From the NCBI GenBank assembly GCA_964637655.1, contig CAZWUZ010000005.1, positions 1 through 36,394 on the forward strand: 36,394 nucleotides of DNA. Reading direction: 5' to 3'. The stretch is from an uncultured bacterium. Its GTDB lineage: Bacteria > DAOPZR01. The notes under the pieces are model-generated. The model did not search any database. It was given only the letters and a program-made list of their open reading frames with translations, and was not told where the DNA came from. This document shows positions 2,334 through 25,098 of the stretch, piece after piece (positions within the stretch are counted from its first letter, which is position 1; the number at the start of each line of letters is the position of its first letter). A program made the position numbers and the translations under genes.

Positions 2334-3224
2334 ATGAGCAGTGAACGGTTGAATATTCTTATTAAGATGAAACAATTATCGAGAATTATTGGAATTATCG
2401 GATTGTTACTATTGGTGTCTGATGCCACGCCATCTTTTGGCAATGATACTGATGTTCATTATCCGTTCTCGTCAATGGCCGAAAGGATGTCGTGGTTTAT
2501 TAGGCAGTCAATATGCCAAACCGAAATACGGCCATCTGGTTTTATTCAACTATTTGGTGACAGCGCTATACCATGTATTGAGAGCACATTAAATTCTATC
2601 GAAAATGATATAGAGAGACGGCGTGCTGAGGGTGATTATAACGACAGCGTTCGGGCAATTGCCTTTAAGAATTGGGCACGTCGCGATGTCGCGTATTTAT
2701 TAGGGGAAATCGCTTCTGAAAAAGGAATCCCTTTGTTGATGGAAATCAAGAATCGTACTAATGACGACAGCGTGCTCGAAGCGGTGGATTGGGCAGAAAA
2801 TAATATACGGCTTGGCGATACTCGAACAATTCAATCTGATATCGAGATAATTCTTAGCTCGGATACGAAAACGTATATATCAGGAGAGGATATTATCTTG
2901 TCTCTGTCTCTGAAAAACTTGGCGGCTATTGATAAACAAGTAATTAACTTTGACTCGGTTCCTGTTTGTATCGCAATGAGTATTTCTATTATGGCTCAAG
3001 ACGGACGAATTGTTCGTAACACAATCCCAAGAGATTTACGCCAACATCAACCTAGCGACGACATCATTTTGAATCCTTCGCAAGTATATACATATACGTT
3101 CAATGTTTCTGAGTATTTTGACTTGACTCATCCGGGAACTTACAAAATATTACAGACATTCCCGTGGATTCAAGGCTGTGGGTACAGTAACGTTGTAACA
3201 ATTAGCATTGCACAGTTGCAATAA
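2334..3224 (+). CDS. Hypothetical secreted protein, helical (HEAT-like) region plus C-terminal Ig-like beta domain
   Basis: ATG 2334 follows AGAAAGGAAA; signal-like segment IIGIIGLLLLVSDA; RDVAYLLGEI helical motif; YISGEDIILSLSLKN beta-sandwich-like motif. Confidence 0.7.
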   Translation: MSSERLNILIKMKQLSRIIGIIGLLLLVSDATPSFGNDTDVHYPFSSMAERMSWFIRQSICQTEIRPSGFIQLFGDSAIPCIESTLNSIENDIERRRAEGDYNDSVRAIAFKNWARRDVAYLLGEIASEKGIPLLMEIKNRTNDDSVLEAVDWAENNIRLGDTRTIQSDIEIILSSDTKTYISGEDIILSLSLKNLAAIDKQVINFDSVPVCIAMSISIMAQDGRIVRNTIPRDLRQHQPSDDIILNPSQVYTYTFNVSEYFDLTHPGTYKILQTFPWIQGCGYSNVVTISIAQLQ

Positions 3225-3261
3225 TGAATTGCGAACCGCGTCGACGAAGTCAATATATGTC

Positions 3262-3326
3262 GGCCAACTTCGCGCTTCTGCGCTTCGCCGCTGACGCGGC
3301 TCAACGCATGGTGCTGATTGTTGGCC
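3262..3326 (+). repeat. attC site (65 bp)
   Basis: GGCCAAC (3262-3268) to GTTGGCC (3320-3326); nearly identical to the site at 41-105, with substitutions in L'. Confidence 0.9.
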
Positions 3327-3407
3327 GTACAGCAACGAAGTAGGACAGGCCGTCGATTGAATATTCTCCCCCCCCGCCGTAGCATTGGCGGCAGCAGGAA
3401 AGGCGGC

Positions 3408-5366
3408 ATGATGGCCCATCGCCTCGTCGAACGTCGGAACATGCGATTGAATCGCCTATGGGCTGCTCTTGTCGCCCTGGCAGCCGCGTTGTCGCTGGGC
3501 GGCTGCGTGTCGTCGCATACGACCTACGCAGTGGCGCGCGACGGCAGCGGGACCTACGACTGCCAGGTGACGGTGGCACCTGCCGCGGTGGCATACAGCC
3601 GCGCGAAGAATCTGGCCGACGACCCGGACACCCCGTTCGCCACCGTCAGGACGGCCGTGCTGGATGCCCTGCGCCGGCAGGGCTTTTCAGCCGCACGCCT
3701 CGACGCGGCCAGCGACAGCAGCGGGCTGCAGCTGCGCCTGCGCGTGTCGGTGCGCGACGTCCGCCATTTCGCGCTGGTCGACGCCATCCTCGCGAAGGAA
3801 TTCGGGCCACTGGCTCCTAGACAGGAATTCGCCCTGCGGCGGCTGCCGGACGGCTGGCAGGCATCCTGCCGGTTCTCGCAGCCCGTCTCGGGAGGGGAGG
3901 GCGCGATAGGGATACTCATGACCCTCGACGCCATCGCCCGGGCCGACGGCTTCAGCCATCCGGAAACCGATTCCTACGGTCTTGCCATGCTGGATTACGT
4001 TTGCGCCGGGAACGCCTGCGCCGTCGACCTGAAGGTCCCTGCCGCCGGAGGCGACACCATCGTCCACTGGCAGCTGCCCGTGCGCGCACTGCTGCTTGCG
4101 GACACCGACCTGCTGCATACCTTGGAGGCGCCCCCGGTCCGCCTCGACCTGCCCGATGCCGTCCCTGAGCTCCCTCCGGCCATCGCGGCAGCGCCGGCGG
4201 ACAGCAATGCTGCCGCGGCGGGACAATCCCTGCGTCGCGACCGGTATGACGAGGCCGTCGCTGCGGCGCTCCTGGTGCGCAGCAGCGACCGACGTGACGC
4301 GCTGCTGGAGAACATCGCAGGCCGGATTCTGGGCGTCAGACGGCGCGACTACGCCCTGGTTGAGCGCATCGAGGGGCTGCTGCGGTCGCCGGGCAGGCGC
4401 GCGCGCCTGGGCGCGGCGTTCGCCCGAAGGCGTGCGCTCGATGCGGACATGGACGCAAGGGATGCCGCCATGCGGCAGGCGCACGACGCCTTGCTGCCGA
4501 GCGACACCCAAAACGTCGCGAACGCCGTGGCCTGCCTCGATTCCGGCTGGCTTTCCGACGCCGCGGGCATTGCGGGCCGAATTCGCGACACGTCCACACG
4601 TGAGGCGCTGCTGCTGCGCGTGGTGGAGAAGCTGGCGTCGGCCGGCGAATTCGCCGAAGCGGAACGCCTCACAGCGCGCCTGGGCGCGGCAACGCGCGCA
4701 ACCGCGGCCGGGCTGCTCAATCGTGCCCGTGCCGCTGCCGCGGCGCGCGAGGCCATGCAGCGGCAGGTATACGCCCTCGACCAGCGCATCGCCCGCGCCG
4801 AGGCGACCGAATTCAAAACACTCTGGCAAGAAGCGGAAGCCGTGCCCGATGCCGAGCGCCGCGCCTACCTGCAGGCGACAATCGCGTGCCGCACCGCGGA
4901 AGGCAATCCGGCGCAGGGACTGGCCCTGGCGCGGTCAATCGCAGACACGGCGAGCATGCATCGCGCCAACAGTATTGCAGCCGTTGCCACCATGTACCTC
5001 GATGCGCAGCGCGACACCGAGGGCAGGGAAGCCCTGGATGAGGCGGCGGCGGCGGCCGCATACATCGGCAACGCGCTCGAGCGCTGCGGCGTGCTCGGGT
5101 ACATTGCGCAGGAATACGCGCGCACCGGGCAGGACGCCAAGGCGCGGGACATTATCCGGCAGGTGCAGCCGCAGCTTGCCGGCCATGCCGCCACACGCGA
5201 CCATGGCGGGATGGACCAGCTTCGGACCGCCGCGGAGTGGCTGGCAATGGCTGGGGCCTGGCTGCACGACTCCGCAGTCGTCGAATCGGCAATCTCGCTC
5301 GTCAACGATGCGGCCTGGCGCAGCGTACTGCGCCGGCACTTGACCCGCATAGCGGAGATGCGCTGA
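3408..5366 (+). CDS. GC-rich lipoprotein with C-terminal helical (TPR/solenoid-like) repeats
   Basis: ATG 3408 follows AGGAAAGG (alternative ATG 3441); lipobox LSLGGC; Ala-rich amphipathic repeats in the C-terminal half. Confidence 0.7.
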   Translation: MMAHRLVERRNMRLNRLWAALVALAAALSLGGCVSSHTTYAVARDGSGTYDCQVTVAPAAVAYSRAKNLADDPDTPFATVRTAVLDALRRQGFSAARLDAASDSSGLQLRLRVSVRDVRHFALVDAILAKEFGPLAPRQEFALRRLPDGWQASCRFSQPVSGGEGAIGILMTLDAIARADGFSHPETDSYGLAMLDYVCAGNACAVDLKVPAAGGDTIVHWQLPVRALLLADTDLLHTLEAPPVRLDLPDAVPELPPAIAAAPADSNAAAAGQSLRRDRYDEAVAAALLVRSSDRRDALLENIAGRILGVRRRDYALVERIEGLLRSPGRRARLGAAFARRRALDADMDARDAAMRQAHDALLPSDTQNVANAVACLDSGWLSDAAGIAGRIRDTSTREALLLRVVEKLASAGEFAEAERLTARLGAATRATAAGLLNRARAAAAAREAMQRQVYALDQRIARAEATEFKTLWQEAEAVPDAERRAYLQATIACRTAEGNPAQGLALARSIADTASMHRANSIAAVATMYLDAQRDTEGREALDEAAAAAAYIGNALERCGVLGYIAQEYARTGQDAKARDIIRQVQPQLAGHAATRDHGGMDQLRTAAEWLAMAGAWLHDSAVVESAISLVNDAAWRSVLRRHLTRIAEMR

Positions 5367-5571
5367 AGAGGAACAAGGGGATGAAACCGCATGCGTCGCG
5401 TACAGCGGAAATGATTGGTTGATAAATGTTCTTGATGACCTCGCAATGGTCGTATGCTGAGTTCATCCCGCAGCAATGGAGCGCATCGACAACCTGCGGT
5501 GAGCCATTGAAGCGAAGATGGTGGAGGCGAACTGACACGAGTGATTAAGACGTCCCTGTCAGACCGGGATG

Positions 5572-5580
5572 TGGTATAAT
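5572..5580 (+). promoter_or_regulatory. Extended -10 promoter element (TGnTATAAT)
   Basis: TGGTATAAT in the intergenic region about 200 bp upstream of the 5777 operon; no consensus -35. Confidence 0.5.
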
Positions 5581-5776
5581 GTGGTTGATTGGCAAATATA
5601 CCCGGTAGGATTTTAGATGGAACCAAGGCAAACTGTCCTTAATCGCGTCAAGAAAGCTACTGTAGCCATTGTGTCCTGACAATAAACTATTTGTGCTGTA
5701 GACCTGTCTTATTTGATAGGTAGCAGCAACACTAGCTACAAAATATCAGGCAAGATGGTGGTAAAGGAGGCACTGT

Positions 5777-6928
5777 TTGAAAATATTGCCAGTCAAACGT
5801 TATATGCCTCCGTCGTACCCAACGCGAGCAATGCTACGAACCCATCCAGACCTCTTTCGTAGAAGTCCGAAACGTTGGCATAACAGCGCCCTAATAGCTG
5901 CCTTGCTTGCTACCACAGCCAGTGCAACATGGGCTGACAGCGGCCAGATAGCATCTCAAGCAACACGAGCTGTTTTGCCTACTGGTGTCCCCCCGCCACC
6001 TGTTGTATATTTCGTTGCGCTTTCGGAAGCCGATGCCTGCCAAGTTATTAACGAACAACTGGAAGAGGCGGGACTTCACACCACCACGGAGCAACTGATT
6101 ACCCGAAACTTGGCGCTTGAAACAGCAAGCCCAAATCAGTTGCCCGCTCAGTCAGGGTCAATTACTGAAACCATTTCGATAACATTTGATGGTGCCAATA
6201 TCGAGCACGGTATCTCCTACGAGTTTCTTTCCTGGGACGACCGCGCAGCAATTGGCGGAAATGGCATCGACAGGATTGAAGCATTCCGCTCTGCACTGGA
6301 AAAATCAAACCCGCGTGGAACCGATGCCGTGTTTTATGATACCCCGGTTTTACTGAGTGTTCTTCCAAATCTAGACGTAAAATGCTTCCCAGGGCTGGTC
6401 GTGAGCAACCGATTTACAGATAAGACGCTCATGCCGTTAAATGTTTTCCGATTTCCTCTCGGCTGTGGCATTGAGGCGTCTGATACTTCAACCATTACTT
6501 TGATGAATGGTGTTAAGAAAGTTATTGTCAACATCGGCAACGACATAGCGACAATCAACGATACTGTTATAACATTGCCGAGGCCTGTTACCACTATCGA
6601 CGGCATAGTATATGTTCCGGTTAGAGCAGTTGCGGAAGGATTGGGGTTTACCGTGATTCAGATGGAAGAAACGGGGATAATTGCCATCGAAAGTAACCCG
6701 CATTGCGCTAATCATCAACTTGATGGCACAAATTCGCAAGCAGTATATAGAGGCTCTTTTAGCCCGGTGTTGGTCCCTGCCGTTGATTCAGGAACGTCAG
6801 ATGGTTATGCTTTCATCAATTATGATATTGGAGCGCGGAATGCAATGGTGTTAAGGGAATCAAAACGCCTGTTGCGCTTGCAGGTAGAAGATTTCATTGC
6901 TTGGCTGAAAGCCGAGGGTGTCTTATGA
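5777..6928 (+). CDS. Exported protein with an inserted copper amine oxidase N-terminal (stalk)-like domain; paralog 1
   Basis: TTG start after AAGGAGG; basic leader, then hydrophobic ALIAALLATTASATWA; the segment INDTVITLPRPVTTIDGIVYVPVRAVAEGLGF is typical of the Cu-amine-oxidase N-terminal domain. Confidence 0.8.
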   Translation: MKILPVKRYMPPSYPTRAMLRTHPDLFRRSPKRWHNSALIAALLATTASATWADSGQIASQATRAVLPTGVPPPPVVYFVALSEADACQVINEQLEEAGLHTTTEQLITRNLALETASPNQLPAQSGSITETISITFDGANIEHGISYEFLSWDDRAAIGGNGIDRIEAFRSALEKSNPRGTDAVFYDTPVLLSVLPNLDVKCFPGLVVSNRFTDKTLMPLNVFRFPLGCGIEASDTSTITLMNGVKKVIVNIGNDIATINDTVITLPRPVTTIDGIVYVPVRAVAEGLGFTVIQMEETGIIAIESNPHCANHQLDGTNSQAVYRGSFSPVLVPAVDSGTSDGYAFINYDIGARNAMVLRESKRLLRLQVEDFIAWLKAEGVL

Positions 6929-8133
6929 ATTCCAGGAAGCGCTTGGCACAAGTGAGGCCAATCCCCTGCTATATCCCCCCCGAATATCCGACACGTGATA
7001 CTCTTCGGCTACATCCGGAAATGCTCCGCAAAACCCCGCATCGCTGGCAGAACAGCGTATTACTGGCTGCTTTGCTTGCTGCGACGTCCGGCACTGTGTG
7101 GGCCGACGATACCGTACAGCAGTTCCGCGTGCCACGCGTTGCCCCATTGTTTAAGCATGGCGACGGCAATATCGAATTTGATTATAGCCGGGCCGCAGTG
7201 AGCACTTCACCCATGCCTGTCCCTCCACAATACGCCGTTGCGCTTAACGAACATGATGCCTGTCAGATTATCAATGAACAATTGGAGCGGGCAGGATTGC
7301 CTATCAGTACTGAACAATTGATAGCATGCAATTTGAAACTCGACGTTGCCCGCCCATATCCGGCCTATTCCGCCCCACGCGGAACAAGCGCTGAAACAGT
7401 TCCAGTCGTCTTGGATGGTTTCAACCAAGAACACGGTATTTCCTACGAATATATTTCGCAGGATGACCGCGCATTGATTGGCGTCGGGGGAATTGTTGGA
7501 ATTGAAAATTTCCGCAATTCTTTACTGCAAGCAACACCTGACGGTGTCGATGCCGTGTTTTATGACCCCTCAACACAATTAAGCAGCGGGTTTTATTCGG
7601 CAATAGTCAGCGTTCCAGGCCTTGTTGCGACAAAGCGCTTCACTGACAAAACACTTATGCCGCTAAATGCCCTCCTCGGACTTATGCAGAACCAAGAACC
7701 ATGTACAGCCGCAACACAAACCATCATTTTGTTGAATGACACTTCAACCGTAATACTAAACAACGGGAGTAATGTCGCTGAAATAAACGGCGACACTGTG
7801 ACGTTGCCGGAACCGGTGACTGTAATCGAAGGCGTAGTGTATGCGCCGGTTAGAGCAGTAGTTGAAGGACTGGGCTTTGCGGTGAACTGGCAAGCTGACA
7901 GTGGGATAGTAGCTTTCACCGGTACGGTTACATGGCATGGTCGCAAGTTAGAATGGTGTCACAGTAGTCAAGTATTGGTACCTGCCGGGGATACAGAAGC
8001 GTTGGATGGTTATGCCTTCCTTGGTTATGCCCCCGAAGCAATGCGGGCATTTGCTCTGGTAGAATCAAAGCGCTTGTTACGCTTACAAGTGAGTGACTTC
8101 ATCGCGTGGCTGAAAGCCGAGGGAATACAATAG
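6925..8133 (+). CDS. Exported protein with an inserted copper amine oxidase N-terminal-like domain; paralog 2 (402 aa)
   Basis: ATGA overlap with paralog 1; colinear similarity over the whole length, including the C-terminal ESKRLLRLQVxDFIAWLKAEG. Confidence 0.8.
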   Translation: MNSRKRLAQVRPIPCYIPPEYPTRDTLRLHPEMLRKTPHRWQNSVLLAALLAATSGTVWADDTVQQFRVPRVAPLFKHGDGNIEFDYSRAAVSTSPMPVPPQYAVALNEHDACQIINEQLERAGLPISTEQLIACNLKLDVARPYPAYSAPRGTSAETVPVVLDGFNQEHGISYEYISQDDRALIGVGGIVGIENFRNSLLQATPDGVDAVFYDPSTQLSSGFYSAIVSVPGLVATKRFTDKTLMPLNALLGLMQNQEPCTAATQTIILLNDTSTVILNNGSNVAEINGDTVTLPEPVTVIEGVVYAPVRAVVEGLGFAVNWQADSGIVAFTGTVTWHGRKLEWCHSSQVLVPAGDTEALDGYAFLGYAPEAMRAFALVESKRLLRLQVSDFIAWLKAEGIQ

Positions 8134-8141
8134 GCTACACC

Positions 8142-9311
8142 ATGCACTTAACCCTGCATCTGACCGGACGCTGCAACTTACGTTGTCGCTACTGTTACGA
8201 CCAAATGAAAAGCGGCGGCGATATGACCCTTGATACGGCAAAAACTGCAATAGAATTCGCACTGCAGCAGTTTCGAAAGGAACAACGCAGTGGCAGCATG
8301 GGAATCAGCTTTTTCGGTGGCGAACCTTTATTGATGCGCGAACTTGTTAAGCAGACTGTACGACACTGCCGAGTGCTTTCGTCTGAAACCAAACAACTAT
8401 TCCACTTCCGACTGACCACCAACGGGACGTTGCTGGACGAGGAATTTCTCACTGGGACGGATACGGGGGAAATATTCGTGGCGTTAAGCCATGATGGTAT
8501 CGCTTCGGCGCACGACACCCATCGCGTTAATGCCACGGGCCACGGCAGTTTCGCCACGATTAACAGCGTCATTTACCTGCTACTGAGGCATAAACCTTAT
8601 TCGCCGGTCATGCTCACTGTGACTCCGGAGACAGCGGGTTCGTATGCGGAATCGGTAAAGTATCTGTATGGGCGTGGTTTTCGCTACCTCATTTGCACGT
8701 TAAACTTTGCAGGCGCGTGGAATGATGCTGCAATGAAGACATTGACCCGGCAATATCAACTCCTTGCTGAATGGTATGAACTGGAAATGAAAAAGGAGGA
8801 AAAGTTCTATTTCAGCCCATTTGAGAGTAAAATTGCCTCCCATGTTGTTCCAGGGAGCTGTCGGAAGGGGCGTTGTGATTTTGGCCGCCGTCAAATATCC
8901 GTGGCACCTAATGGACGGCTATATCCCTGCGTGCAATTTGTCGGTGATGGCAGCAACGACACTTACTGTATCGGTGATGTCTATTCGGGATTAGATACTG
9001 CCAAACACGCCGTGCTTTATGCCGAAAACGATGCTGATAAATCGGAATGTGGTCGATGTGCGGTACGCGAGCGATGCAACCATTTCTGCGGATGCTTGAA
9101 CTGGCAAGCGACCGGTCGCCTGACAAATGTTGCACCAGCGGTCTGTGCACACGAACGCATAATTATTCCAATTGTCGATAAAATGGCGACAAGCCTGTTT
9201 AAGAGCCGCAACGCTCTGTTTATACAGAAACACTATAATGACATTTATCCATTTCTCTCCCTAATCGAGGATATGCAGATGAAGGCAACGACAGATGGGA
9301 AATCCAATTGA
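8142..9311 (+). CDS. Radical SAM enzyme with SPASM domain (389 aa)
   Basis: CNLRCRYC (CxxxCxxC); FFGGEP; SPASM signature C...ISVAPNGRLYPC...IGDV followed by CGRCAVRERCNHFC (Cx2Cx5Cx3C). Confidence 0.95.
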   Translation: MHLTLHLTGRCNLRCRYCYDQMKSGGDMTLDTAKTAIEFALQQFRKEQRSGSMGISFFGGEPLLMRELVKQTVRHCRVLSSETKQLFHFRLTTNGTLLDEEFLTGTDTGEIFVALSHDGIASAHDTHRVNATGHGSFATINSVIYLLLRHKPYSPVMLTVTPETAGSYAESVKYLYGRGFRYLICTLNFAGAWNDAAMKTLTRQYQLLAEWYELEMKKEEKFYFSPFESKIASHVVPGSCRKGRCDFGRRQISVAPNGRLYPCVQFVGDGSNDTYCIGDVYSGLDTAKHAVLYAENDADKSECGRCAVRERCNHFCGCLNWQATGRLTNVAPAVCAHERIIIPIVDKMATSLFKSRNALFIQKHYNDIYPFLSLIEDMQMKATTDGKSN

Positions 9312-10774
9312 TGATTATCGCTAAAAGCAGACAAGCCCGAACATGGGCGAACCATATAGCGCTGATGATTGCTTTGTTATTGTGCCTGACCCTCCCGGCT
9401 GCATCAGACCCATATTGGGATGCGCCGCTGACGGTGATTAATACAACAGACCAACACAATCTCAGTTGGGGCGACACGCTGACAATTTCAGTTCAGCTCA
9501 AGAACGATTCGACCGGGCCGGTAACGTTCGAACCCTTGCGATTGAGCGTTCGGTACGTGATTTTGCCCGACTGTGATACAGGATATCTGTATTACATACC
9601 ACAAGCGATGGGACGTCGATATGAAAACCGCAGGTCATTGGGAGATACCGGTTTCGTCACCGTGAGACCAGGTGAAGTATATGAATGCGACAATATCGTA
9701 ACTGCGCAACTGGAGTTGTACGATTATTCGGGCACTGTTTCAGTGTGTGTCGTGGTAGACGGGTTTGACAGCACGTTTGCGACATGGGTGCACCACGGGA
9801 GACCGCTTTATTCAAGCGGACACATATCAGGCAATTATCTGCAGGTGCAATACGGACCTGTCCACCCGTTTACGATTGAAGAATATTTGGCTAGACAACA
9901 GACGTACTGGAGTGACGCGGATTCGACGACGGGCGAGCTCCATTCGCTTGTCGAATATCTGACATTTCCGACCCTTCGTGAGAGTTCCTTGCTTGCAATA
10001 GAGAATAGGCTAAAGGAATACCCTGATACAGAGGCCCTTCGCTGCCTCTATCTGCCGTATTGCAACGCGTCTTTATACGGTTGGCATTCCGGAATAGGGC
10101 CGCCGAACATGGACGATACGACGGTGCGATACGAATGGAAGCGGCCATGGCTCTATGGTGCTGGAATGGCGAGGATATGGTTCGGCTGCTTGCAACGCAT
10201 TCCTGTGGATGACCGATTGGCAGAATTGACGGCCATATATAATTCTTTGGAACGGGCAACGCTGAAGACCCAATTTGCTTCATGGGGGGCGCAGGACAAT
10301 CGTAGCATGTTGTCGGAAATCATCAAAGGAAACTGTAGTCCGCCTGCTCAAGAGCAGTTCTTGCTTGGAGTACTTGAGGATACCGGTGAATTCTGGGAAG
10401 TGCGCAATAGGGCGGCGTATAATCTGGTGCAATCAACTGGTCTGAAATACCGGCAGCAACTTGTTGCCCATGTTAGGCAGCATCCGCAACGATTGTGGGG
10501 AAGAAATTTCCCCGAGGAGGTCTTGCGCCGAATGTTCGCTGCGACGGCGCAGGAGAACGGTTGTGATACGGAATTAGTGCGGCTGGGATTTGAGCTGATT
10601 GAAGAAGCTGTGCAATACGACACTCGCTTCGCGCCAGCCATGGGACATATCATTGACATGCTCGAACAGTACCTGCATCAGAAGGTGACGCTTGAGGACT
10701 CGGAAGGTCCTGAAACAAAATTGCGGCAGGCGCATCAATGGTGGCTGATGAATCGTCAGAGATTCTGCGATTGA
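9311..10774 (+). CDS. Hypothetical secreted protein, N-terminal Ig-like domain plus C-terminal helical (HEAT-like) region
   Basis: TGATG overlap with the rSAM stop; hydrophobic IALMIALLLCLTLPAA; WGDTLTISVQLKN; WEVRNRAAYNL. Confidence 0.7.
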   Translation: MIIAKSRQARTWANHIALMIALLLCLTLPAASDPYWDAPLTVINTTDQHNLSWGDTLTISVQLKNDSTGPVTFEPLRLSVRYVILPDCDTGYLYYIPQAMGRRYENRRSLGDTGFVTVRPGEVYECDNIVTAQLELYDYSGTVSVCVVVDGFDSTFATWVHHGRPLYSSGHISGNYLQVQYGPVHPFTIEEYLARQQTYWSDADSTTGELHSLVEYLTFPTLRESSLLAIENRLKEYPDTEALRCLYLPYCNASLYGWHSGIGPPNMDDTTVRYEWKRPWLYGAGMARIWFGCLQRIPVDDRLAELTAIYNSLERATLKTQFASWGAQDNRSMLSEIIKGNCSPPAQEQFLLGVLEDTGEFWEVRNRAAYNLVQSTGLKYRQQLVAHVRQHPQRLWGRNFPEEVLRRMFAATAQENGCDTELVRLGFELIEEAVQYDTRFAPAMGHIIDMLEQYLHQKVTLEDSEGPETKLRQAHQWWLMNRQRFCD

Positions 10775-10842: not shown

Positions 10843-11571
10843 ATGACCGTGCCGGCATTCTTCCGGTTCCCATCGCGAAGGCGTCTGCTGATATACGCCG
10901 TGGTCATTGCCGCGCTCGCCACCTATGGTCTTGCCTTTCACACCTATCACTACCGCGCCACTGAATATCTCGACTATAACCATGATGGGATTGCCAACCT
11001 TAACGACACCGACATCGATGGCGACGGCCTGGCGAATCTGTCCGATACCGACGCCGATGGCGACGGAGTTGAGAACCACGCTGACATAGTATCCGCCGCC
11101 AGGGGCATGGGCGGCACAATCTACGACTATTCCTCCGGCGGCTACAACAACTTCTTCGGGCGCTGCGGCCTGCTCGTGTGCATAGACGTGCCGCGCCTGG
11201 CCTATGCCGACGCCGGCATTTACCTTGAACAGCTGCTGCGGGATGACTTCCTGAAGCATCCCGAGCATTACGATACCCGGGCCGGAACCAACACGCCGGC
11301 CACCCCGTTTTTCTTCCGTAGGGTTACCAACCTGCTGGCATACTGTGAGACAAATGGCTACTACATGGTTGCGCAGAAGCCGGCGCCTGGCGACCTGCTG
11401 TTCTACGGCAGCATGCACATCACGATGGTCACTGCGGCATATCCGGACGGCACCTACGACGAAATCGAGTCGGCGCCGTGGACCGGCATGGTGGTCGAGC
11501 ACCGGCGTCTGCGCTGGACCCCCAGGGAAGTCGGGCGCATTATCCCGAATGAGGTGCAAAGTCCATCATGA
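10843..11571 (+). CDS. Membrane-anchored protein with DxDxDG Ca-binding repeats and a DUF1287/NlpC-P60-like domain
   Basis: N-terminal TM; DYNHDG, DIDGDG and DADGDG repeats; CIDVPRLAY...RRVTNL...PGDLLFY...HI pattern resembles DUF1287 proteins. Confidence 0.65.
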   Translation: MTVPAFFRFPSRRRLLIYAVVIAALATYGLAFHTYHYRATEYLDYNHDGIANLNDTDIDGDGLANLSDTDADGDGVENHADIVSAARGMGGTIYDYSSGGYNNFFGRCGLLVCIDVPRLAYADAGIYLEQLLRDDFLKHPEHYDTRAGTNTPATPFFFRRVTNLLAYCETNGYYMVAQKPAPGDLLFYGSMHITMVTAAYPDGTYDEIESAPWTGMVVEHRRLRWTPREVGRIIPNEVQSPS

Positions 11572-12515
11572 ATTCTGTCGTGCGCGTGCTGATGTTCGGC
11601 TGTGCTGTCATGCTGTTTGCCGGGTGCGCGACTGCACAGTATGCCCGTCCGGACCAGACCGTCAGCCTGGATGACATGAAGGCCACGGTGAACTACCTGA
11701 CGGCCATGCAGCCGCCGCGCAGCTTCGCGTTCCCAGAATCGCTGAACAATGCGGCGGACTATATCGCACGGAAATTGACCGCGTACGGCCTGAACCCAGA
11801 ACGGCAGTACTTCGATGTGCTCGGCGACACGTTCGTGAATATCGTGGCGAGCGTCGGCCCGCGACAGGGCAAGCGGCTGATTGTCGGCGCGCACTACGAC
11901 GTCTGCGGCAACCAGCCGGGGGCCGACGACAATGCCAGCGCCATCGCCGGCCTGCTGGAAATCGCTCGCTTTGCGAAGCAGCACGAGGCAGACTTGCGTT
12001 ACGGCATCGACTTCGTGGCCTATTCCCTTGAGGAACCCCCGTATTTCGGCACTCCGCACATGGGGAGTTTCGCTCACGCGCAAAGCCTCAAGCGGAACAA
12101 TGTTCCGGTCTACGGGATGATTTGTCTGGAGTCGATTGGCTACTTCACGGACGCGGAGAACTCGCAGCGATACCCGTCGGCGCTGCTGGAGGCATGCTAC
12201 CCGAGCACCGGCAACTTCATTGCCGTGGTCAGCGACATGGGCAGCATATCCCTGGCGAAACAGGTGGCGGAGCAGCTTGCGGCCACCGAAGTTGACGTGC
12301 AGACGCTGCATGCGCCGTCGTCCCTGGCCATGATTGACTTCTCCGACCACCGGAACTACTGGATGTTCGGCTTCGACGCCATCATGATTACCGACACCGC
12401 GCTGCTGCGCAATCCGAACTACCATAGGGGCAGCGATACGCCCACGACCCTTTCCTATGATAAGATGGGGGAAGTCGTCAGGGGGATTTGCTGGGCCATA
12501 CTGAATTTGAAGTAA
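11568..12515 (+). CDS. M28-family metallopeptidase lipoprotein
   Basis: Lipobox FAGC; VGAHYD, PGADDNASA, EEPP, LESIG and SDH zinc-ligand motifs; ATGA overlap with the upstream gene. Confidence 0.9.
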   Translation: MNSVVRVLMFGCAVMLFAGCATAQYARPDQTVSLDDMKATVNYLTAMQPPRSFAFPESLNNAADYIARKLTAYGLNPERQYFDVLGDTFVNIVASVGPRQGKRLIVGAHYDVCGNQPGADDNASAIAGLLEIARFAKQHEADLRYGIDFVAYSLEEPPYFGTPHMGSFAHAQSLKRNNVPVYGMICLESIGYFTDAENSQRYPSALLEACYPSTGNFIAVVSDMGSISLAKQVAEQLAATEVDVQTLHAPSSLAMIDFSDHRNYWMFGFDAIMITDTALLRNPNYHRGSDTPTTLSYDKMGEVVRGICWAILNLK

Positions 12516-13732: not shown

Positions 13733-16357
13733 CTATCGTGGCAGGGTTTCGCGGGTCTCGAACCGGGTCCGTTGCTTTGCGATGGCATAATCCTCCAACT
13801 CGTCTGTTGAAAGGGCCAACACTTCCTCCATCGGGAACTCATCCCCCATAAATGGGTTTGGCAGTGGCTCGCAGCGGAATTGGCGATAGAGTTCCGTGGC
13901 TGTTGCGGGGGCATGACCGGTTCTGCGCTCATAGAGAAGAGCGTACTGACGCAGCAGGACTGTGCGCAGGATGCTTTGTACCTGAGGAGTAAGGGAAGTC
14001 ATGCGCCATTGCCTGGGAGACTGTCCGGCCAGTGAAATGGCCACCGCATTCATCGGTCGCAGTATCAGCTCGCGGGCCATGAGCGCCTGCCATCTTTCTT
14101 CCTGTTCCGACCGCTTCATGATGCCGGCATAATCCTGCTGCTCCATGAGGTCGGCAATATCGGCGTATTCGTTGACGATGACCTGGCGGACTCTGTCGGG
14201 ATTGGCGAGGGGATAGGTGAACCACCTGCTACCCGTGGTTAAGTCGATGGTGTATTCGGCCTTGACGAGTCCCTGGAGGCGCAGGGCGTCGGCGATGAGT
14301 TTCGGGATGCGCTGCGTGCAGCGACGTTCCAGCTGCGCATAGGATTCCAGCAGCTTTGGGTCAAGCAAATCGGGGTCGCGTTCGAACAGGGCGTCGGCGG
14401 TAATCAGCGATTCAATCAGGCAGGCCTGCCCGACCGTGTGCGGCAGCACGCCCGGCAGTTCGAGCAGATGTTCGCCGAGTTTGGTCATTCTCGCCAGTCG
14501 TGTCAATGCCGCGCTGGTGTCACCGTAATCGTATTTATCCAGAACTGCCAGTTGCTCCTGCTTGAAGATGCTGATGAGAAAGAGGCATCTTAGTTCAGGA
14601 CTGGTCTGCTCCGTGTAGACATCAGGCATGACGACTTTCAGATTGTGCTGGCTGTAGTAGGAGAATATGTCCTCACGTAATCGGCTGGTGCGCTCGAGTA
14701 TGCGCCTGACGTCATCATCTATGGGCTGGGACAGGTTTTCCTGCGCGGCATCAATTGTTTCGTATGTATCGCCAGCTTCGCTTATCGGGCTGAATGCTTC
14801 GTGGAACCGTTGTGTAGTGGCGATAAGGTCGGCGGAACTGGCGCTATATGCGGGGTCGCGCCAAGCTTCAGTGGGGTATGGCGGGTTGAACTTCGTCAGG
14901 AACGGCAGATTGCCGACAAGCAGCAGCATAATCCAGAGCAATGGCAGCAGAATGAGCGCATACCCGGCGACTCGCACGGCATAGCGCCAAGCGTTGCGGG
15001 CGCGGAAGACTGTATGGAAATACTGCAAGGACAGCATCGCGGCGCTGGCGGCAATGATGATGAGCAAGGAAGGCATAGCAGAAAAAAGCAGAGAGACGAC
15101 ATTGCTCCCCATATACCTTTCGTGGACTAGATATGCGATTACCTGCGAGTCTGGTGAGTCCATGCCGGTTGCCAGCAGCGGCAGCATCAGCAGGCCTACG
15201 ACCAGGAGCGGGAATAGCAGCGAGAGAAAGACGCCGACCATCGGTCCCGGGGCGAAACACGAAGCGAGAAAGGCGAGGGCATAGACATAGAGCAGAGAGC
15301 TGAATTGTGCGTCGACAATTGCCTGAATGCCGTTGCCCAGAAAATTCTGCTCGACACTGCTGCCAATAGTCATGGAACTCACCCGGCCAAATGCCTGTCC
15401 AGGGTTATCGCCGACCGGCGCGGGGAGGATGACAGACAGAACGCTGCTAAACAGCAGGACGAGCGCCAGACCGAGCAGAAACTTGACGCTGCCGATGACA
15501 GCAGGACGCAGCGGCAGGGCCAGAACGCTGCCGAGCGTGCGCTCCGCCCGTTCGCCGGCGACGAGGCGATTGGCGACTACGATGGCGAAAAATAGCGTCA
15601 GCAGGCGGCCGACGACAAGGTAGCCGACTATGCCATCAGCGTCCGCGCCGCCAAGGTAATGGAGCCGCATGAGCAGCAGCGCGGCGAGCATCATGAACGC
15701 GACGATTGTGGGCAACAGCAAACGCAGATTATTGAAGATTAGTGTTCGGATAATGCGCGTCTGCCGCGCGGCAGCACCCGGGGCAGCAATAGTGCGCATG
15801 AATAGCGGCAATGAGATGAGCAATATCGGGACAACGGCCAGGTAAGCGACATTCTCGGTATATCCTTCATCGGAGAACAGCATGCAGGTGTTCAGCACGA
15901 TGCTGCCGCCAATCGATACAATCACGGCGAGCAGCAGCGACAGCCACAGGCGCCGAGCCAGGGATGCGCCAATGACGGCGAAAGCCACGCAGTACCCCAA
16001 GACCGCATAGTCGATAAGGAAACCGGAAGTGTTCGGGTCGGTCGGGGAATGCAAGGCGTTGACGATAGCGAAAATAGCAATGGCGAAAAGCAAAGTGACT
16101 GCATAGCCAAGGGCGATAACCAGCAGCCAACAGAGAAAAGGACGAACGACCCCATTGCCAATAATCGGGCGGCAACCTCGGACAAGCAGGGTGATGTACA
16201 GCGGAACCGTCAGCAGCGAAGCAAACAGCAATAATCCGAATCCCTCATCGCCGGCGTCCAGGCCGCGCAGCAGGCAGGCGAGTACGGCAATAATGAGCAG
16301 CGCCGGACCAAAGACGAGCAACATCCGCTTCAGTTCGCCGCGCACGATATAAATCAT
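13733..16357 (-). CDS. ABC-2-type permease with two membrane modules and a C-terminal soluble domain (874 aa)
   Basis: Start reassigned to ATG 16357 (TAATG overlap); many TM segments; ERAERTLGSVLALPL permease motif; hydrophilic C-terminal region of about 330 aa. Confidence 0.85.
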   Translation of the reverse strand: MIYIVRGELKRMLLVFGPALLIIAVLACLLRGLDAGDEGFGLLLFASLLTVPLYITLLVRGCRPIIGNGVVRPFLCWLLVIALGYAVTLLFAIAIFAIVNALHSPTDPNTSGFLIDYAVLGYCVAFAVIGASLARRLWLSLLLAVIVSIGGSIVLNTCMLFSDEGYTENVAYLAVVPILLISLPLFMRTIAAPGAAARQTRIIRTLIFNNLRLLLPTIVAFMMLAALLLMRLHYLGGADADGIVGYLVVGRLLTLFFAIVVANRLVAGERAERTLGSVLALPLRPAVIGSVKFLLGLALVLLFSSVLSVILPAPVGDNPGQAFGRVSSMTIGSSVEQNFLGNGIQAIVDAQFSSLLYVYALAFLASCFAPGPMVGVFLSLLFPLLVVGLLMLPLLATGMDSPDSQVIAYLVHERYMGSNVVSLLFSAMPSLLIIIAASAAMLSLQYFHTVFRARNAWRYAVRVAGYALILLPLLWIMLLLVGNLPFLTKFNPPYPTEAWRDPAYSASSADLIATTQRFHEAFSPISEAGDTYETIDAAQENLSQPIDDDVRRILERTSRLREDIFSYYSQHNLKVVMPDVYTEQTSPELRCLFLISIFKQEQLAVLDKYDYGDTSAALTRLARMTKLGEHLLELPGVLPHTVGQACLIESLITADALFERDPDLLDPKLLESYAQLERRCTQRIPKLIADALRLQGLVKAEYTIDLTTGSRWFTYPLANPDRVRQVIVNEYADIADLMEQQDYAGIMKRSEQEERWQALMARELILRPMNAVAISLAGQSPRQWRMTSLTPQVQSILRTVLLRQYALLYERRTGHAPATATELYRQFRCEPLPNPFMGDEFPMEEVLALSTDELEDYAIAKQRTRFETRETLPR

Positions 16358-17001
16358 TAGCGGACCTCGCCGTTCAGCATATCGCATATTCTCACCCACA
16401 GCGGCTTGCGATGTACATGCAGGAAAAAGCGGAGTGAAAGAAGGAAGACGACGGCAGCGAACAGCACGGCTGCGGCGCTGGTCATGACTTCTGCGCGGGT
16501 ATCGATGTAGACGCCCGCGCCAGCGCCATACATGGAACCGGCGATGAAACTGACGAGGACTGCGACTATGGTGTTGGTGCTGAAGCATGAAACGGTGAAG
16601 GAAATGCTGTAGAACGCGAGCAGATATGCGTAAGCCAAGGCGCGGGTCTGGTCTGGCATGCCGGCCTGCACGATGATGACGGTGGCGCCAAGGGCAGATA
16701 TGAGCGAAACCACCAGGCCGAACAGGTACTTGACCAGCCACAGGCGGTACGGTGTCACCGGGAGCGCGGTAAGGGGCACGAAAGTGCCGCTCTGCCGCTC
16801 ATCGGCCACCAGTTGCGCCGCAATTAGCATAGCCAGCAGCGAGGCGATGCCGTACGCAGCGGCAACAAAGTTGCGGGGGTCGAGCGTGAGCAGGTCGGGC
16901 CGACGCTGGGAGTAGGAATAGTAGGCGATGAGCGCCAGCAGTGCGAACAGTATGACCGGTCTCGCCGCGCGCAGTTCCTTGCGGATGAGGACGATATACA
17001 T
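16357..17001 (-). CDS. ABC-2-type permease (214 aa)
   Basis: ATG 17001 (TAATG overlap); IRKELR start; ERQSGTFVPLTALPV...WLVKY motif; about 6 TM segments. Confidence 0.85.
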   Translation of the reverse strand: MYIVLIRKELRAARPVILFALLALIAYYSYSQRRPDLLTLDPRNFVAAAYGIASLLAMLIAAQLVADERQSGTFVPLTALPVTPYRLWLVKYLFGLVVSLISALGATVIIVQAGMPDQTRALAYAYLLAFYSISFTVSCFSTNTIVAVLVSFIAGSMYGAGAGVYIDTRAEVMTSAAAVLFAAVVFLLSLRFFLHVHRKPLWVRICDMLNGEVR

Positions 17002-18989
17002 TATCGGCTCTCGCGATTCCATGCGCGCTGCTGAATGCGCTTTGCTGTTGTCTGCGGATATTCGAAATCGATACGGCCGTCGGCGGTGATTACCGCATCC
17101 GGGAACGGCTGGCCGGTAAAATCATCGAGGAAAGGCGTTAGGTTATAGTGCCGGTAGACGGTATCGGGTGTCATTGCCCGCCTGCCGGTTTCACGGCGAT
17201 AGCGGGCGAGCAGCAGGTGCAGGCGGGCTAGGCGCAGCATGTCAATGACCGACGCCGAGTTGTTTAAGACGCTGTTGAGCTTCGGCGTGGCAACTTCTAT
17301 GAGCGTGACGGCAGCGGGATAGAGCAGATATTCCGTCCTGCTGTAGGTCAGCTGCGGCAGTCGGCCGGCAACCGTGTAATACGGCCGGGTGCTCGCCGCA
17401 ATCAGCTGGCGTACCAGTTCGGTGTGGTACTCGGCGAATATGCGCTTGTTGCCGAAGGGATAGCCGATGCCGAGGTTGGTCAGGACGGAGGTCGCGCCGT
17501 CGAAATAGGCGCTTTCCACGATGAACGCGCTGACGAACGCATGGCGCGCCTTATTCTCGAGCGTGGCGAACTCCCGGTCGAGTGCGGCAATGAAGCGCGG
17601 GTCGGCGCTTCCGTCGAGTGGGACAATGGCGCAGGCGGCTTCCGCAGCTATGCCCGTATTGGCGATGCCGACAAGCTGCAGGAACAGGGTTGAACTGTCC
17701 AGGCAATGGTCGGTGGCCGCCATGAGGCGCAGCGCTTGTTGCTGTGCTTGTCCAAGATTGCCACGCCTAGCCTCGCGCCTGATGTCGAAGCTTTCGAGTT
17801 TCCATAGCGATATGAGCGTTCCCCCGTCCGGTGCATAGCCGCTGTCGGTATTATAGAGCGCATAAGGTGATTGGCAATACGGGGTGAGCGGGTGGGCTGC
17901 GGCATAGTCGAAGAACTCGTTGCGCAGTGCCGCAGTGCTGTCGAGTATCGCGCTCATCGCCGGAGTGGGTATCGTGTCCCAGTCCGTGGTGAGATTGGCC
18001 TGGAAATCACGGTCGTAGCTCGTACCGAAATCGGTCTTGAACTTGGCGGTGAGCCGCTGGAATTCCTGCGCGGATGCGAGATTGTCGGGATTGCGCAGGA
18101 AGTCGGCGTCGAACCCCGGCGAAGGCGGATTCAGAACGGGCAGGTTGACGACTGAAAGCAGCAGCAGATAGGCGAGCGCGACGGCGACCGGCAGGAAGGC
18201 GGGCGTGACAGCCAGGGCATAGGCGCGCAGGCGGACGGCCTGGCGGCGATGATGATGCTTGAACGCCGCGAAGGAGAGCGCCAAGGCCGATATCAGGCCG
18301 CAGAGGACCACGACACAGCATCCGCCAACAAACAGGCTATCGAATGCACTTGAGGAAACGGCGCAGAAAGGCAAATTCAGAAAGAACGCTGCCATCATCA
18401 CCATGACGAATAGGACTTGGGTCAAGCCCAACAGCAGGAAACCGGAGAGGCTGGCGACGATAGCGTTCGGGGAGAAGGTGGCGGCAACGAAGCTGATGGC
18501 ATAGGCGGCGACGGCCAGGTACAGAACCACTCCGATGACTTGCGCCTCCGTCCATTCGATGCCGGCAAGCAGTTGCTGCACCATGGGTTCCGCCGGCGAA
18601 ACTCGTTCAACTCCGAGGATATCGTATCGGTCTGGCGCAAAGGGGGTTAGAGAATAGGCTTCGCAGTAGCAGGCATAGGCGATGTAGGCAAACAGCGCGA
18701 AGAGCAGGGTGAGCGCGAGCCCGCTGAAGAACTTGATGAGCCATAGCCGCTGCGGGACGATGGGCAGCGACATGAGCGCGGCCAGATGCTGCTTTTCCTT
18801 CTCACTTGCAACCACCTGATTGGCGATTAGAATGGCGGCTAAGATTGGTAGAGAGCCGCATGACATCAGGAAAAGGCCGGGTGTGGTCGGCAAGTTGTCA
18901 AGTCCGAGAATGGCAAGGAACGCGGCGAGCAGACCGAATACGACCACGCGCAGGGAACGGAAATCCTTGCGGATGATAGTCCTAAGCAT
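17001..18989 (-). CDS. ABC-2-type permease fused to a C-terminal soluble domain (662 aa)
   Basis: ATG 18989 overlaps the ATPase stop; EKEKQHLAALMSLPI...LWLIKF motif; C-terminal domain resembles that of 13733-16357. Confidence 0.85.
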   Translation of the reverse strand: MLRTIIRKDFRSLRVVVFGLLAAFLAILGLDNLPTTPGLFLMSCGSLPILAAILIANQVVASEKEKQHLAALMSLPIVPQRLWLIKFFSGLALTLLFALFAYIAYACYCEAYSLTPFAPDRYDILGVERVSPAEPMVQQLLAGIEWTEAQVIGVVLYLAVAAYAISFVAATFSPNAIVASLSGFLLLGLTQVLFVMVMMAAFFLNLPFCAVSSSAFDSLFVGGCCVVVLCGLISALALSFAAFKHHHRRQAVRLRAYALAVTPAFLPVAVALAYLLLLSVVNLPVLNPPSPGFDADFLRNPDNLASAQEFQRLTAKFKTDFGTSYDRDFQANLTTDWDTIPTPAMSAILDSTAALRNEFFDYAAAHPLTPYCQSPYALYNTDSGYAPDGGTLISLWKLESFDIRREARRGNLGQAQQQALRLMAATDHCLDSSTLFLQLVGIANTGIAAEAACAIVPLDGSADPRFIAALDREFATLENKARHAFVSAFIVESAYFDGATSVLTNLGIGYPFGNKRIFAEYHTELVRQLIAASTRPYYTVAGRLPQLTYSRTEYLLYPAAVTLIEVATPKLNSVLNNSASVIDMLRLARLHLLLARYRRETGRRAMTPDTVYRHYNLTPFLDDFTGQPFPDAVITADGRIDFEYPQTTAKRIQQRAWNRESR

Positions 18990-19860
18990 TGGCGACTTCA
19001 CGGCGGAAGATGGTTTCAAGGTCGAGTGGTGCCGTTTCTACCGTCGCGCCAGCCTTGGTCAGGGTTGCGGCCAGCGCTTCGCCGCCGTCGCGGTAGTAGA
19101 GCGTCAGGACATTGCCTTCGCGGCTGACTTCCTGCGCTCCATGCAGGTTGAGGTTCGCGGGTATACCGGAGGAGAACATAGCGGTCAATTCACCTCGAAC
19201 TGCTCGGATGGCGTCGATGCTGTCGTCCAGCTGGATATGCTGCCGGTGCAGCAGCATGACGCGGTCGCAGAAGCGCTCGATGTCGCTGAATTGGTGGCTG
19301 GAAATCAGCACGGTGCGCTCGCCTCCAGCGACATACTCGGAGAGAAGCTGCAGGATATCCGTGCGCACGACCGGGTCGAGCCCGGAGAAGGGCTCGTCGA
19401 GCAGCAGCAGCTCGGGATGATGGGCGAGGGCCAGCACCAGCAGCAGGCGGGTCTTCATGCCCTTGGAATAGGTCTTCACCTTGCCCTTGCCCGTCAGCGA
19501 AAGCCGTTCCAGCAGGCCCGTGGCATAGGTCGCGTCCCAGGTCGGATAGAAGGCGCCGACGAAGGCGCAGAGCTGTTCGGCTGTCATCCAGTCGTACCAC
19601 TGGAAGGCGTCAGGCACGTACCCTGTGCGGGCGCGGATGGCCACGCCCTGCGCCAGTGCGGGCAGGCCGAGCACCTTCAACTCGCCCGCGTCCGCCTCTA
19701 GCAGGCCGAGCAGCAGGCGGATGAGCGTGGTCTTGCCGACCCCGTTCTCGCCCACCAGCCCGGTCACCGAACCCTGTGGCAGGGCAAAAGAGATGCCGTC
19801 AAGCACCTGGTTGCGCCGGAAGCGCTTGCTGACGCGTTCAACCGTAACGGGGGTGGTCAT
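18982..19860 (-). CDS. ABC transporter ATP-binding protein (YtrB-like, 292 aa)
   Basis: Walker A GENGVGKTT; signature YSKGM; Walker B LLLLDEP; H-loop SSH; ATGA overlap with the GntR gene. Confidence 0.95.
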   Translation of the reverse strand: MTTPVTVERVSKRFRRNQVLDGISFALPQGSVTGLVGENGVGKTTLIRLLLGLLEADAGELKVLGLPALAQGVAIRARTGYVPDAFQWYDWMTAEQLCAFVGAFYPTWDATYATGLLERLSLTGKGKVKTYSKGMKTRLLLVLALAHHPELLLLDEPFSGLDPVVRTDILQLLSEYVAGGERTVLISSHQFSDIERFCDRVMLLHRQHIQLDDSIDAIRAVRGELTAMFSSGIPANLNLHGAQEVSREGNVLTLYYRDGGEALAATLTKAGATVETAPLDLETIFRREVANA

Positions 19861-21311: not shown

Positions 21312-21622
21312 TGGTCTCTCCTTTCTTCACCACCGAAGAGGCGCGTATATATCAACGCTTCTGCCCGAATGGCCTCCATTTCCACCGGGTCAGGCTGGGT
21401 GGGCCGACGCTCCGCATCCGGCTTCGGAAATACTGGTTGGATGGCGAAGTCCGTTCGCAACTCGTCCCGCATGTCGCTCGGCGCATCCGTCTGCTTAGGC
21501 GTGGCCTTCTCATTGTGTTGCTCCTTTGATTTGATATTCTGCGGCGTGGGCATGCGGATAAGCACGCGCGGCTGTGCCTGCTGCGTTTGCCGCAATATCC
21601 ACAAATCATTCCGAGTTTTCAT
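21308..21622 (-). CDS. Hypothetical protein (104 aa)
   Basis: ATGA overlaps at both ends: with the ATPase stop and with the clpP start. Confidence 0.6.
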   Translation of the reverse strand: MKTRNDLWILRQTQQAQPRVLIRMPTPQNIKSKEQHNEKATPKQTDAPSDMRDELRTDFAIQPVFPKPDAERRPTQPDPVEMEAIRAEALIYTRLFGGEERRDQ

Positions 21623-24612: not shown

Positions 24613-24613
24613 G

Positions 24614-25096: not shown

Positions 25097-25098
25097 GG

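Follow-up and report, generated by a model that had tools for sequence, protein, structure and literature searches.

The window analysed here, a stretch of 36,394 nt from an uncultured bacterium (contig CAZWUZ010000005.1), carries three co-directional genes on the + strand: parA and parB, which encode two exported paralogues, and a gene for a radical S-adenosylmethionine (SAM) enzyme with a SPASM region (rSAM). The rSAM and the protein family to which parA and parB belong, here termed the partner family, are obligate neighbours and are often translationally coupled. In our view the three genes probably form an operon that represents a widespread, uncurated two-part module, which consists of an rSAM/SPASM maturase that lacks the RiPP (ribosomally made, post-translationally modified peptide) recognition element (RRE) and of its own protein substrates encoded directly upstream. 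The substrates would be full-length exported proteins, lipoproteins in most lineages, whose signal peptide bears a basic N-terminal extension of ~35 residues.

The enzyme, the partner family and their pairing

The pairing was surveyed from both sides. The enzyme-seeded survey was a profile scan with one genome per species (80 loci returned), followed by a search with a leader hidden Markov model (HMM) from six sequences and BLAST clustering of the neighbouring open reading frames (ORFs). In 80 of 82 enzyme-seeded loci a partner-family gene adjoins the rSAM, and only one of these loci has the two genes on opposite strands; in the remaining two loci the rSAM lies at a contig end. The partner-seeded survey, a metagenome scan with the motif QVxDF[IVL]xWL[KE], returned 78 loci. 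The rSAM is present in 64 of these and 12 contigs end too early; hence the enzyme accompanies the partner in 64 of 66 assessable loci. Gene-neighbourhood co-occurrence, the test on which an earlier, sequence-only reading of this DNA had staked its claim of a protein-modification system, holds in both directions. Both genes are found in 129 loci, and the partner lies upstream in 123 of them, with a median gap of 1 nt between its stop codon and the rSAM ATG. Tandem partner copies are frequent (one copy in 86 of the 129 loci, two in 24, three in 13, and four to six in 6). By analogy, a run of tandem partners ahead of a single, tightly coupled rSAM corresponds to the arrangement of precursors with their maturase. 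When every ORF of 90 aa or longer lying no more than 5 kb from the rSAM was clustered for 82 loci, only the rSAM, the partner family and alternative-frame rSAM artefacts emerged, with no third conserved gene such as a protease or an exporter. A full-text search of the literature found no description of the pairing.

The enzyme meets the definition of the radical SAM superfamily, with 45.5 bits to Pfam PF04055 (threshold 29.5). In alignment A1, which places it among 18 diverse homologues, the SPASM pattern C245-x12-G-x4-C263, C303-x2-C306-x5-C312-x3-C316, C335 is complete. All seven Cys are invariant, as are two further Cys beyond this pattern. The Pfam SPASM model (PF13186) scores 18.3 bits, just short of the gathering score of 21.5; the Cys motif of the class (PF13186/TIGR04085; CX9-15GX4C ... 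CX2CX5CX3C ... C, for two auxiliary clusters) assigns the enzyme to the SPASM enzymes, and the region aligns to the SPASM domain of CteB. The best NCBIfam match is PapB (NF047865; 222.5 bits, cut-off 340), and SCIFF/CteB (TIGR03974; 144.6 bits, cut-off 425, match from model position 98), QhpD (TIGR03906; 129.9 bits, cut-off 453) and anSME (TIGR03942; 82.5 bits, cut-off 349) also match. The top HMM matches are all peptide or protein maturases, every one far under its cut-off. The closest solved structure is CteB (5wgg, E = 1.6e-48), and anSME (PDB 4k37) matches with E = 3.5e-23. By these comparisons, the enzyme belongs to the peptide/protein-maturase branch of the SPASM enzymes. Matches to RRE-containing families begin near model position 80–100 and the alignment to CteB begins at its residue 99; the enzyme therefore lacks an RRE, a feature in which it appears to be built like anSME. 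The enzyme family is tight, with more than 1,800 homologues, of which the best 120 are 54–68% identical to the window enzyme. Its hosts include Armatimonadota, Lentisphaerota, Verrucomicrobiota, Planctomycetota, Acidobacteriota, Bacillota, Bacteroidota and others. Two further leads were set aside. The ligand difference between anSME and CteB at the first auxiliary Fe-S cluster is uninformative, as the aligned positions of CteB are also occupied by Cys. A role as prokaryotic viperin in defence was rejected, since the pVip models match only residues 4–126, the generic rSAM core (PADLOC), and the NCBIfam score of 62.6 bits stays under the cut-off of 180.

When 1.84 billion representative proteins were searched exhaustively with HMMER, 2,021 partner clusters (at 50% identity) were returned at E <= 1e-3 and 986 at E <= 1e-30, and nearly all of the best 150 of the 2,021 clusters align end to end. 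Scans of parA, parB and seven typical members detected no Pfam or NCBIfam model other than that of a Cu_amine_oxidN1 insert. Where members are named, the annotation is 'hypothetical protein', or copper amine oxidase N-terminal domain protein for the insert-bearing P0123. Typical members are 250–300 aa long; the size of about 40 kDa given in the sequence-only reading fits the subset with the insert and not the typical members. The family plan begins with the basic extension of ~35 residues (MkvkPVk.Yk.P.YPTk......PELL..vP.RW..N, or, as a consensus, M-x-V-x-P-V-x-x-Y-x-x-P-x-Y-P-T-R...P-E-L-L...P-x-R-W-x-x-N). A hydrophobic segment follows, which ends in a lipobox in ~65% of the members, and then a variable linker and the motif VAPxFxHGxGRGxFGCxxVxPPxFLSExEA. 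An α/β domain of ~110 residues (LDGxD...IxxEFVS..D...W...GVFYDP) and a second variable linker lead to LRxQVxDFxxWLKxQGVI at the extreme C-terminus. Per column, the C-terminal helix carries the most information (2.86 bits), followed by the HG...GC...PP motif (2.55), the LSExEA helix (2.52), the extension (2.1) and the domain body (1.55). In the mature part, only E84, Q369 and F373 are invariant, and W376 and L377 are nearly so.

AlphaFold 2 (AF2) models of parB (predicted local distance difference test, pLDDT, 74) and of the 245-aa P0128 (pLDDT 81.6) contain a compact α/β domain and a long, confidently predicted C-terminal helix. The Cu_amine_oxidN1 domain is inserted between the FYDP strand and this helix in a subset only (the window, L001, L002a, L095, L096, L107, L136 and L163), and is a lineage-specific addition outside the conserved module. 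In parB the insert matches the N-domain chains of E. coli amine oxidase (1spu/1oac) with a Foldseek probability of 0.96–0.99. Apart from this insert, Foldseek searches of the two AF2 models against the PDB gave no match with E <0.05 and no credible relative of the core fold (best E = 0.2, probability <0.15). Fragments of PD-(D/E)xK nucleases and sulfatases were dismissed, their probability being below 0.15.

In the window, coordinates refer to positions of the whole stretch, and the genes were called from the ORF listing and its translations. The features of the module are as follows.

5764–5770, + strand: Shine-Dalgarno-like AAGGAGG, 6 nt ahead of the parA TTG, read from the sequence
5777–6928, + strand: parA, exported paralogue 1 of 383 aa with a TTG start; leader HMM 89 bits; lacks the HGxG...GC motif
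5777–5887, + strand: basic N-terminal extension of parA, aa 1–37, MKILPVKRYMPPSYPTRAMLRTHPDLFRRSPKRWHNS; candidate leader for the rSAM, conserved across all loci
5888–5935, + strand: hydrophobic signal segment of parA, aa 38–53, ending in T-W-A; signal peptidase I-type site without lipobox, read from the sequence
6419–6685, + strand: Cu_amine_oxidN1 insert of parA, aa 215–303; Pfam PF07833, 52.5 bits
6854–6925, + strand: conserved C-terminal helix of parA, RESKRLLRLQVEDFIAWLKAEGVL; Q369 and F373 invariant
6925–8133, + strand: parB, exported paralogue 2 of 402 aa; keeps VAPLFKHGDG, lacks the Cys of GRGxFGC; leader HMM 92 bits
6925–7056, + strand: basic N-terminal extension of parB, aa 1–44; candidate leader
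7057–7104, + strand: hydrophobic signal segment of parB, aa 45–60, ending in V-W-A; helix 45–54 in the AF2 model
7138–7167, + strand: remnant of the family motif in parB, VAPLFKHGDG, aa 72–81; A73, P74, F76, H78, G79 and G81 conserved in alignment A3
7642–7911, + strand: Cu_amine_oxidN1 insert of parB, aa 240–329; Pfam 50.4 bits, Foldseek 1spu/1oac
8059–8130, + strand: conserved C-terminal helix of parB; AF2 helix 370–398, pLDDT 91–93
8142–9311, + strand: radical SAM/SPASM enzyme gene, 389 aa, without N-terminal RRE; Pfam Radical_SAM, Fer4_12 and SPASM
8172–8195, + strand: CX3CX2C radical SAM cluster motif, C11, C15 and C18; invariant in alignment A1
8859–9146, + strand: SPASM region with nine invariant Cys (C240, C245, C263, C303, C306, C312, C316, C318 and C335); alignment A1 and CteB alignment

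The parB ORF is open from 6901, and its most likely start is the ATG at 6925, which overlaps the parA stop as ATGA. The rSAM ORF is open from 8106, with the most likely start at ATG 8142, 8 nt past the parB TAG that ends at 8133. The last codons GCC GAG GGx (...KAEG) of parA and parB (6908–6916 and 8116–8124) give a GAGG Shine-Dalgarno-like sequence for the next gene, and, read in another frame, the same DNA accounts for the 'MAESRG' with which the mechanical ORFs at 6901 and 8106 begin. The two paralogues are 48% identical over the full length (BLASTP E = 1e-111). Both carry the N-terminal P-x-[YF]-P ... P-x-R-W extension of the partner family and its C-terminal L-R-x-Q-V-x-D-F-x-x-W-L-K-x-x-G. 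The extension has 37 residues and a net charge of ~+8 in parA and 44 residues and ~+6 in parB, in both as P-x-Y-P-T-R...H-P...P-x-R-W-x-N-S, and the common C-terminus reads ESKRLLRLQVxDFIAWLKAEG. Both Cu_amine_oxidN1 matches exceed the Pfam gathering score of 24.2. The greatest divergence falls directly past the signal segment, where parB has RVAPLFKHGDG and parA has none of it. The sequence-only reading had described these features correctly: the paralogues with their long basic leader and near-identical C-terminus, the inserted stalk domain, the site of greatest difference and the 8-nt distance to the SPASM gene.

The candidate leader, the fixed-spacing motif and the proposed reaction

The extension is conserved across phyla, from Bacillota to Verrucomicrobiota, and is kept in a minimal partner of 132 aa at L004 (5591–5989; Chthoniobacteraceae, complete genome CP170506), which ends 11 nt ahead of an intact rSAM. 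This protein consists of the extension, a lipobox and a Pro-rich tail with a PPRLNTEAEA remnant, and lacks the C-terminal helix; save for this weak PPxxL-T-E-x-E-A echo, the extension is its sole recognisable family element. The extension is therefore the best candidate for a recognition element and probably serves as the leader of the enzyme. The sequence-only reading had proposed that either the leader or the C-terminal helix recruits the enzyme. The leader candidate gains support from its conservation (2.1 bits against 1.55 in the domain body) and from L004. The helix does not fit a free docking tag, since it is predicted with pLDDT 91–97 and therefore looks like part of the fold. In P0143 and P0144, two metagenomic variants in alignment A3, the second half of the extension is replaced by a twin-arginine-like YPTRR(E/G)(V/F)L directly before the hydrophobic segment, and these proteins may be exported by the twin-arginine translocation (Tat) pathway; on the P0143 contig, too little sequence is available for an rSAM to appear. 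A Tat signal was rejected for the family, as this form occurs in the two variants only and the usual P-x-R-W is not a Tat motif.

The segment past the signal peptide has a fixed length in the family (VAPxFxHGxGRGxFGC-x4-PPxFLSExEA) and is among its most conserved motifs. Among 323 non-redundant partners, a Cys lies exactly 11 residues ahead of the first Glu of L-S-E-x-E-A in 276, and the His of HGxG lies exactly 20 residues ahead of it in 264. The spacing is thus H-x8-C-x10-E-x-E, with H(-20), C(-11), E(0) and E(+2), and at least one substrate with Cys(-11) is present in ~95% of the loci. The proposal that a variable Pro-rich segment is the modified core fails on this conserved motif, which occupies the same position in the family; the Pro-rich segment of the window is better described as a degenerate copy of it. 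HGxGRGxFGC with Cys(-11) occurs in ~85% of the family and in neither parA nor parB. parB retains VAPLFKHGDG, with GRGxFGC replaced by an unrelated Pro-rich stretch, and the whole HGxG...GC motif is gone from parA. The window copies are atypical because the conserved Cys is missing. The signal segments of both end in signal peptidase I-type sites and not in a lipobox. Both also have a Cys four residues past the Glu (E-x-D-A-C), which is found in no other Cys-less member. The closest relatives of the window, L001 (Lentisphaeria; 4787–5983) and L163 (1253–2425), have Gly-Thr instead of Gly-Cys at -12/-11, a hint of an oxygen analogue. In the Cys-less members as a whole, the replacing residue is mostly Gly, not Ser or Thr. 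No rSAM position stood out as tracking the loss of the substrate Cys.

We infer the following sequence of events. Before the preprotein folds and is exported, the cytoplasmic enzyme would bind the N-terminal extension as a leader and would place a radical modification in the segment just past the signal peptide, in the family F-x-H-G-x-G-R-G-x-F-G-C-x4-P-P-x-F-L-S-E-x-E-A. After export, signal peptidase I or II would cut off the leader jointly with the signal peptide. Our leading guess at the reaction in most of the family is a thioether crosslink from Cys(-11) to a Glu or a nearby residue. A thioether is favoured because the closest characterised enzymes make such links: PapB, CteB and QhpD form thioethers from Cys to Asp, Glu or Thr (PMC10114670, PMC9413430). 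For the present window a thioether is doubtful. As parA and parB lack Cys(-11) and their relatives have Thr, the candidate chemistries here are the oxygen analogue, another acceptor, the shared Cys(+4) or something else. The general form of the proposal is that a family of ~2,000 clusters in at least ten phyla comprises exported proteins and lipoproteins that a dedicated RRE-less rSAM/SPASM enzyme modifies before they leave the cytoplasm. The enzyme would read the conserved extension, the signal peptide would double as a leader of the RiPP kind, and leader removal would fall to the general signal peptidase; in our estimate this proposition is evenly balanced.

Several points weigh against this reading, which draws on gene context and homology. 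The enzyme lacks an RRE and hence an identified leader-binding domain. Cys(-11) is missing in ~15% of the partners and in ~5% of whole loci, including the window, where the rSAM is intact; a Cys-dependent reaction is therefore not universal. PapB needs a Cys upstream of Asp/Glu and does not process the transposed Asp...Cys order (PMC9413430), which makes a reaction at Cys(+4) of parA and parB less likely. A metal site or a purely structural role would explain the fixed-spacing H/C/E/E motif equally well, and L-S-E-x-E-A resembles a helix N-cap in the AF2 model. Finally, two partner-seeded loci, L107 and L136, have no nearby rSAM. Their partners have the complete extension and a Cu_amine_oxidN1-sized insert, with no rSAM within 2.6–4 kb downstream, and may be extra copies served in trans.

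The absence of Cys(-11) from whole loci with an intact enzyme speaks for the alternative that the enzyme acts on the neighbouring protein by a chemistry other than thioether formation, which we regard as possible and distinctly less likely than the favoured reading. Such chemistry might be an anSME-like oxidation of residue -11 (Cys, or Thr in the relatives of the window) to a carbonyl, or a C-C or C-O crosslink at conserved aromatic or His residues (F-x-H-G, or W-L-K of the C-terminal helix). The exact replacement of Gly-Cys by Gly-Thr at -11 in L001 and L163 and the (near) invariance of W376, L377, F373 and Q369 in the C-terminal helix also fit this alternative; anSME, DynA and cyclophane-forming enzymes also lack an RRE. 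However, both by HMM and by structure the thioether-forming enzymes match best, the partners have no anSME motif C/S-x-P-x-R, the C-terminal helix is missing from the L004 partner, and Gly rather than Ser/Thr replaces the Cys in most Cys-less members.

Two further alternatives are improbable. The N-terminal extension itself could be the target, with the modification gating export or the cleaved peptide as the active product. No other element is as universal as the extension, which shares its cytoplasmic location with the enzyme and is intact in parA and in the L004 partner, both of which lack the motif of the mature part. Its conserved Pro, Tyr/Phe/Ile, Leu, Arg and Trp nevertheless look like a binding motif, in which Tyr is exchanged for Ile, Leu or Phe in some members, and the co-occurrence of the mature domain and C-terminal helix with the rSAM in ~97% of the loci would be left unexplained. 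With a similarly low probability, the genes could be linked without being enzyme and substrate, for instance if the rSAM makes a small molecule or cofactor for the exported protein. This would agree with the missing RRE, with E84, Q369 and F373 as the sole invariant residues of the mature part, and with predicted models in which the mature protein is a folded domain and not a peptide. It would not account for the place of the enzyme in the peptide/protein-maturase branch, for tandem upstream partners with 1-nt gaps typical of precursor-maturase pairs, or for the long conserved cytoplasmic extension, which would have no role, and no transporter or other biosynthetic gene is conserved. A last alternative, in which the enzyme acts on a short, unannotated precursor and the large proteins stand by without being modified, is very improbable. 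Most SPASM maturases act on peptides of <100 aa, and the 410-nt gap upstream of parA contains small ORFs (listed at 5300–5900), yet none of these has a counterpart at other loci, no short precursor ORF is conserved across the 129 loci, as the sequence-only reading had anticipated when it found none evident, and the large protein, at a median of 1 nt from the rSAM, is the sole conserved neighbour.

Genomic surroundings of the module

The gene downstream of the rSAM is not part of the conserved module.

9311–10774, + strand: exported ORF of 487 aa, whose ATG overlaps the rSAM stop

It has a signal-like N-terminus and no Pfam or NCBIfam family. It is probably co-transcribed with the rSAM and appears to be lineage-specific; homologues of the flanking genes of the window, including this ORF, were found in none of 84 other loci. 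The module and the 487-aa ORF together (5777–10774) have a GC content of 47–51%, whereas the flanks (3001–5000 and 11001–12000) reach 60–71%, within a range of 43–71% for the whole window. This composition suggests a mosaic or horizontally acquired region, and the GC contrast, an island-like right half of the window and the spread across phyla together suggest horizontal transfer of the module.

Upstream, 3318–5366 (+) encodes an Ala/Arg-rich ORF of 682 aa with ~70% GC, a lipobox-like LSLGGC near the N-terminus, no Pfam family and only a faint NCBIfam match. Downstream, 10843–12515 (+) encodes a DUF1287 protein with a D-x-D-G-D repeat segment and then an M28 peptidase with a lipoprotein-like signal. 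At 13733–20001 (-), an ABC ATPase (18982–20001) precedes two large multi-pass membrane proteins of 672 and 1002 aa without Pfam family. The island-like part (20703–36313) encodes ClpP, a weakly matching ATPase like the coupling proteins of type IV secretion systems, a sigma-70 region 4 protein and an RNase_T exonuclease, together with a Schlafen/AlbA_2-HATPase_c_4 protein, a HEPN protein and the type I restriction-modification proteins HsdR and HsdM. Rfam detected no RNA elements in the window.

Significance and comparison with known systems

With few exceptions, among them anSME and QhpD, whose substrates are proteins, the known SPASM enzymes act on short peptides. The module suggests a set of SPASM maturases that act on proteins, in a previously undescribed pairing, and neither the partner family nor its rSAM has a Pfam or NCBIfam model. 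Peptide-centred RiPP mining caps the precursor length and so overlooks an entire class of putative radical protein modification, with exported substrates of 250–400 aa in a strictly paired module that spans phyla. If the reading is true, the module would offer a new way to equip whole secreted proteins with radical crosslinks or cofactor-like modifications; the domain concerned has no relative of solved fold. A leader-like segment fused to a Sec or lipoprotein signal peptide could generally couple cytoplasmic modification to export, and such a fusion might be reusable in engineering. Cultured hosts of the module include Hungatella hathewayi DSM 13479 and Hungatella effluvii DSM 24995.

The copper amine oxidase stalk proteins (PF07833) have a domain in common with parA and parB, yet this domain is the insert of a family subset only. 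anSME acts on whole sulfatases. Like the window enzyme, it is an rSAM/SPASM enzyme of ~370–390 aa without an RRE, and its cytoplasmic action on a whole protein that is exported later resembles the mechanism proposed here. In contrast to sulfatases, the window partners have no C/S-x-P-x-R motif, no sulfatase fold and no sulfatase family match. The module also differs in that its enzyme and substrate genes are strictly adjacent and the substrate has a dedicated N-terminal extension. QhpD is likewise an rSAM/SPASM enzyme, which makes Cys-to-Asp/Glu thioethers within the protein QhpC, a leader-bearing subunit that ends outside the cytoplasm (PMC10114670). Most partners of the module similarly have a Cys followed by invariant Glu residues. 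The ~95-residue N-terminal domain of QhpD is missing here (the model match begins at position 96), and no QhpE protease, QhpF exporter or dehydrogenase subunits lie near the module, where only the partner family is conserved. The leader of the module, moreover, continues into an ordinary signal peptide of the Sec or lipoprotein type. As the cut-offs of anSME and QhpD are not reached and their motifs and contexts are absent, the enzyme is a member of neither family.

The PapB and CteB (SCIFF) ranthipeptide maturases are the closest relatives by HMM and solved structure, with an identical SPASM Cys pattern. The window enzyme differs in that it lacks the RRE and scores under both cut-offs. Their substrates are short Cys-rich peptides, whereas those of the module are exported proteins of 250–400 aa with at most one conserved Cys. 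The short precursor with repeated CX3D motifs beside the enzyme, by which the PapB family is defined, is replaced by neighbours of this larger size. With RiPP systems in general, the module as proposed shares an N-terminal recognition segment that is removed by a peptidase after modification, and tandem precursor genes ahead of a single maturase. It differs from them in having no RRE, dedicated protease or exporter. The 'core' of the module would be a folded domain of ~200 residues. Its 'leader' would coincide with the n-region of a signal peptide, which leaves the role of leader peptidase to the general signal peptidase.

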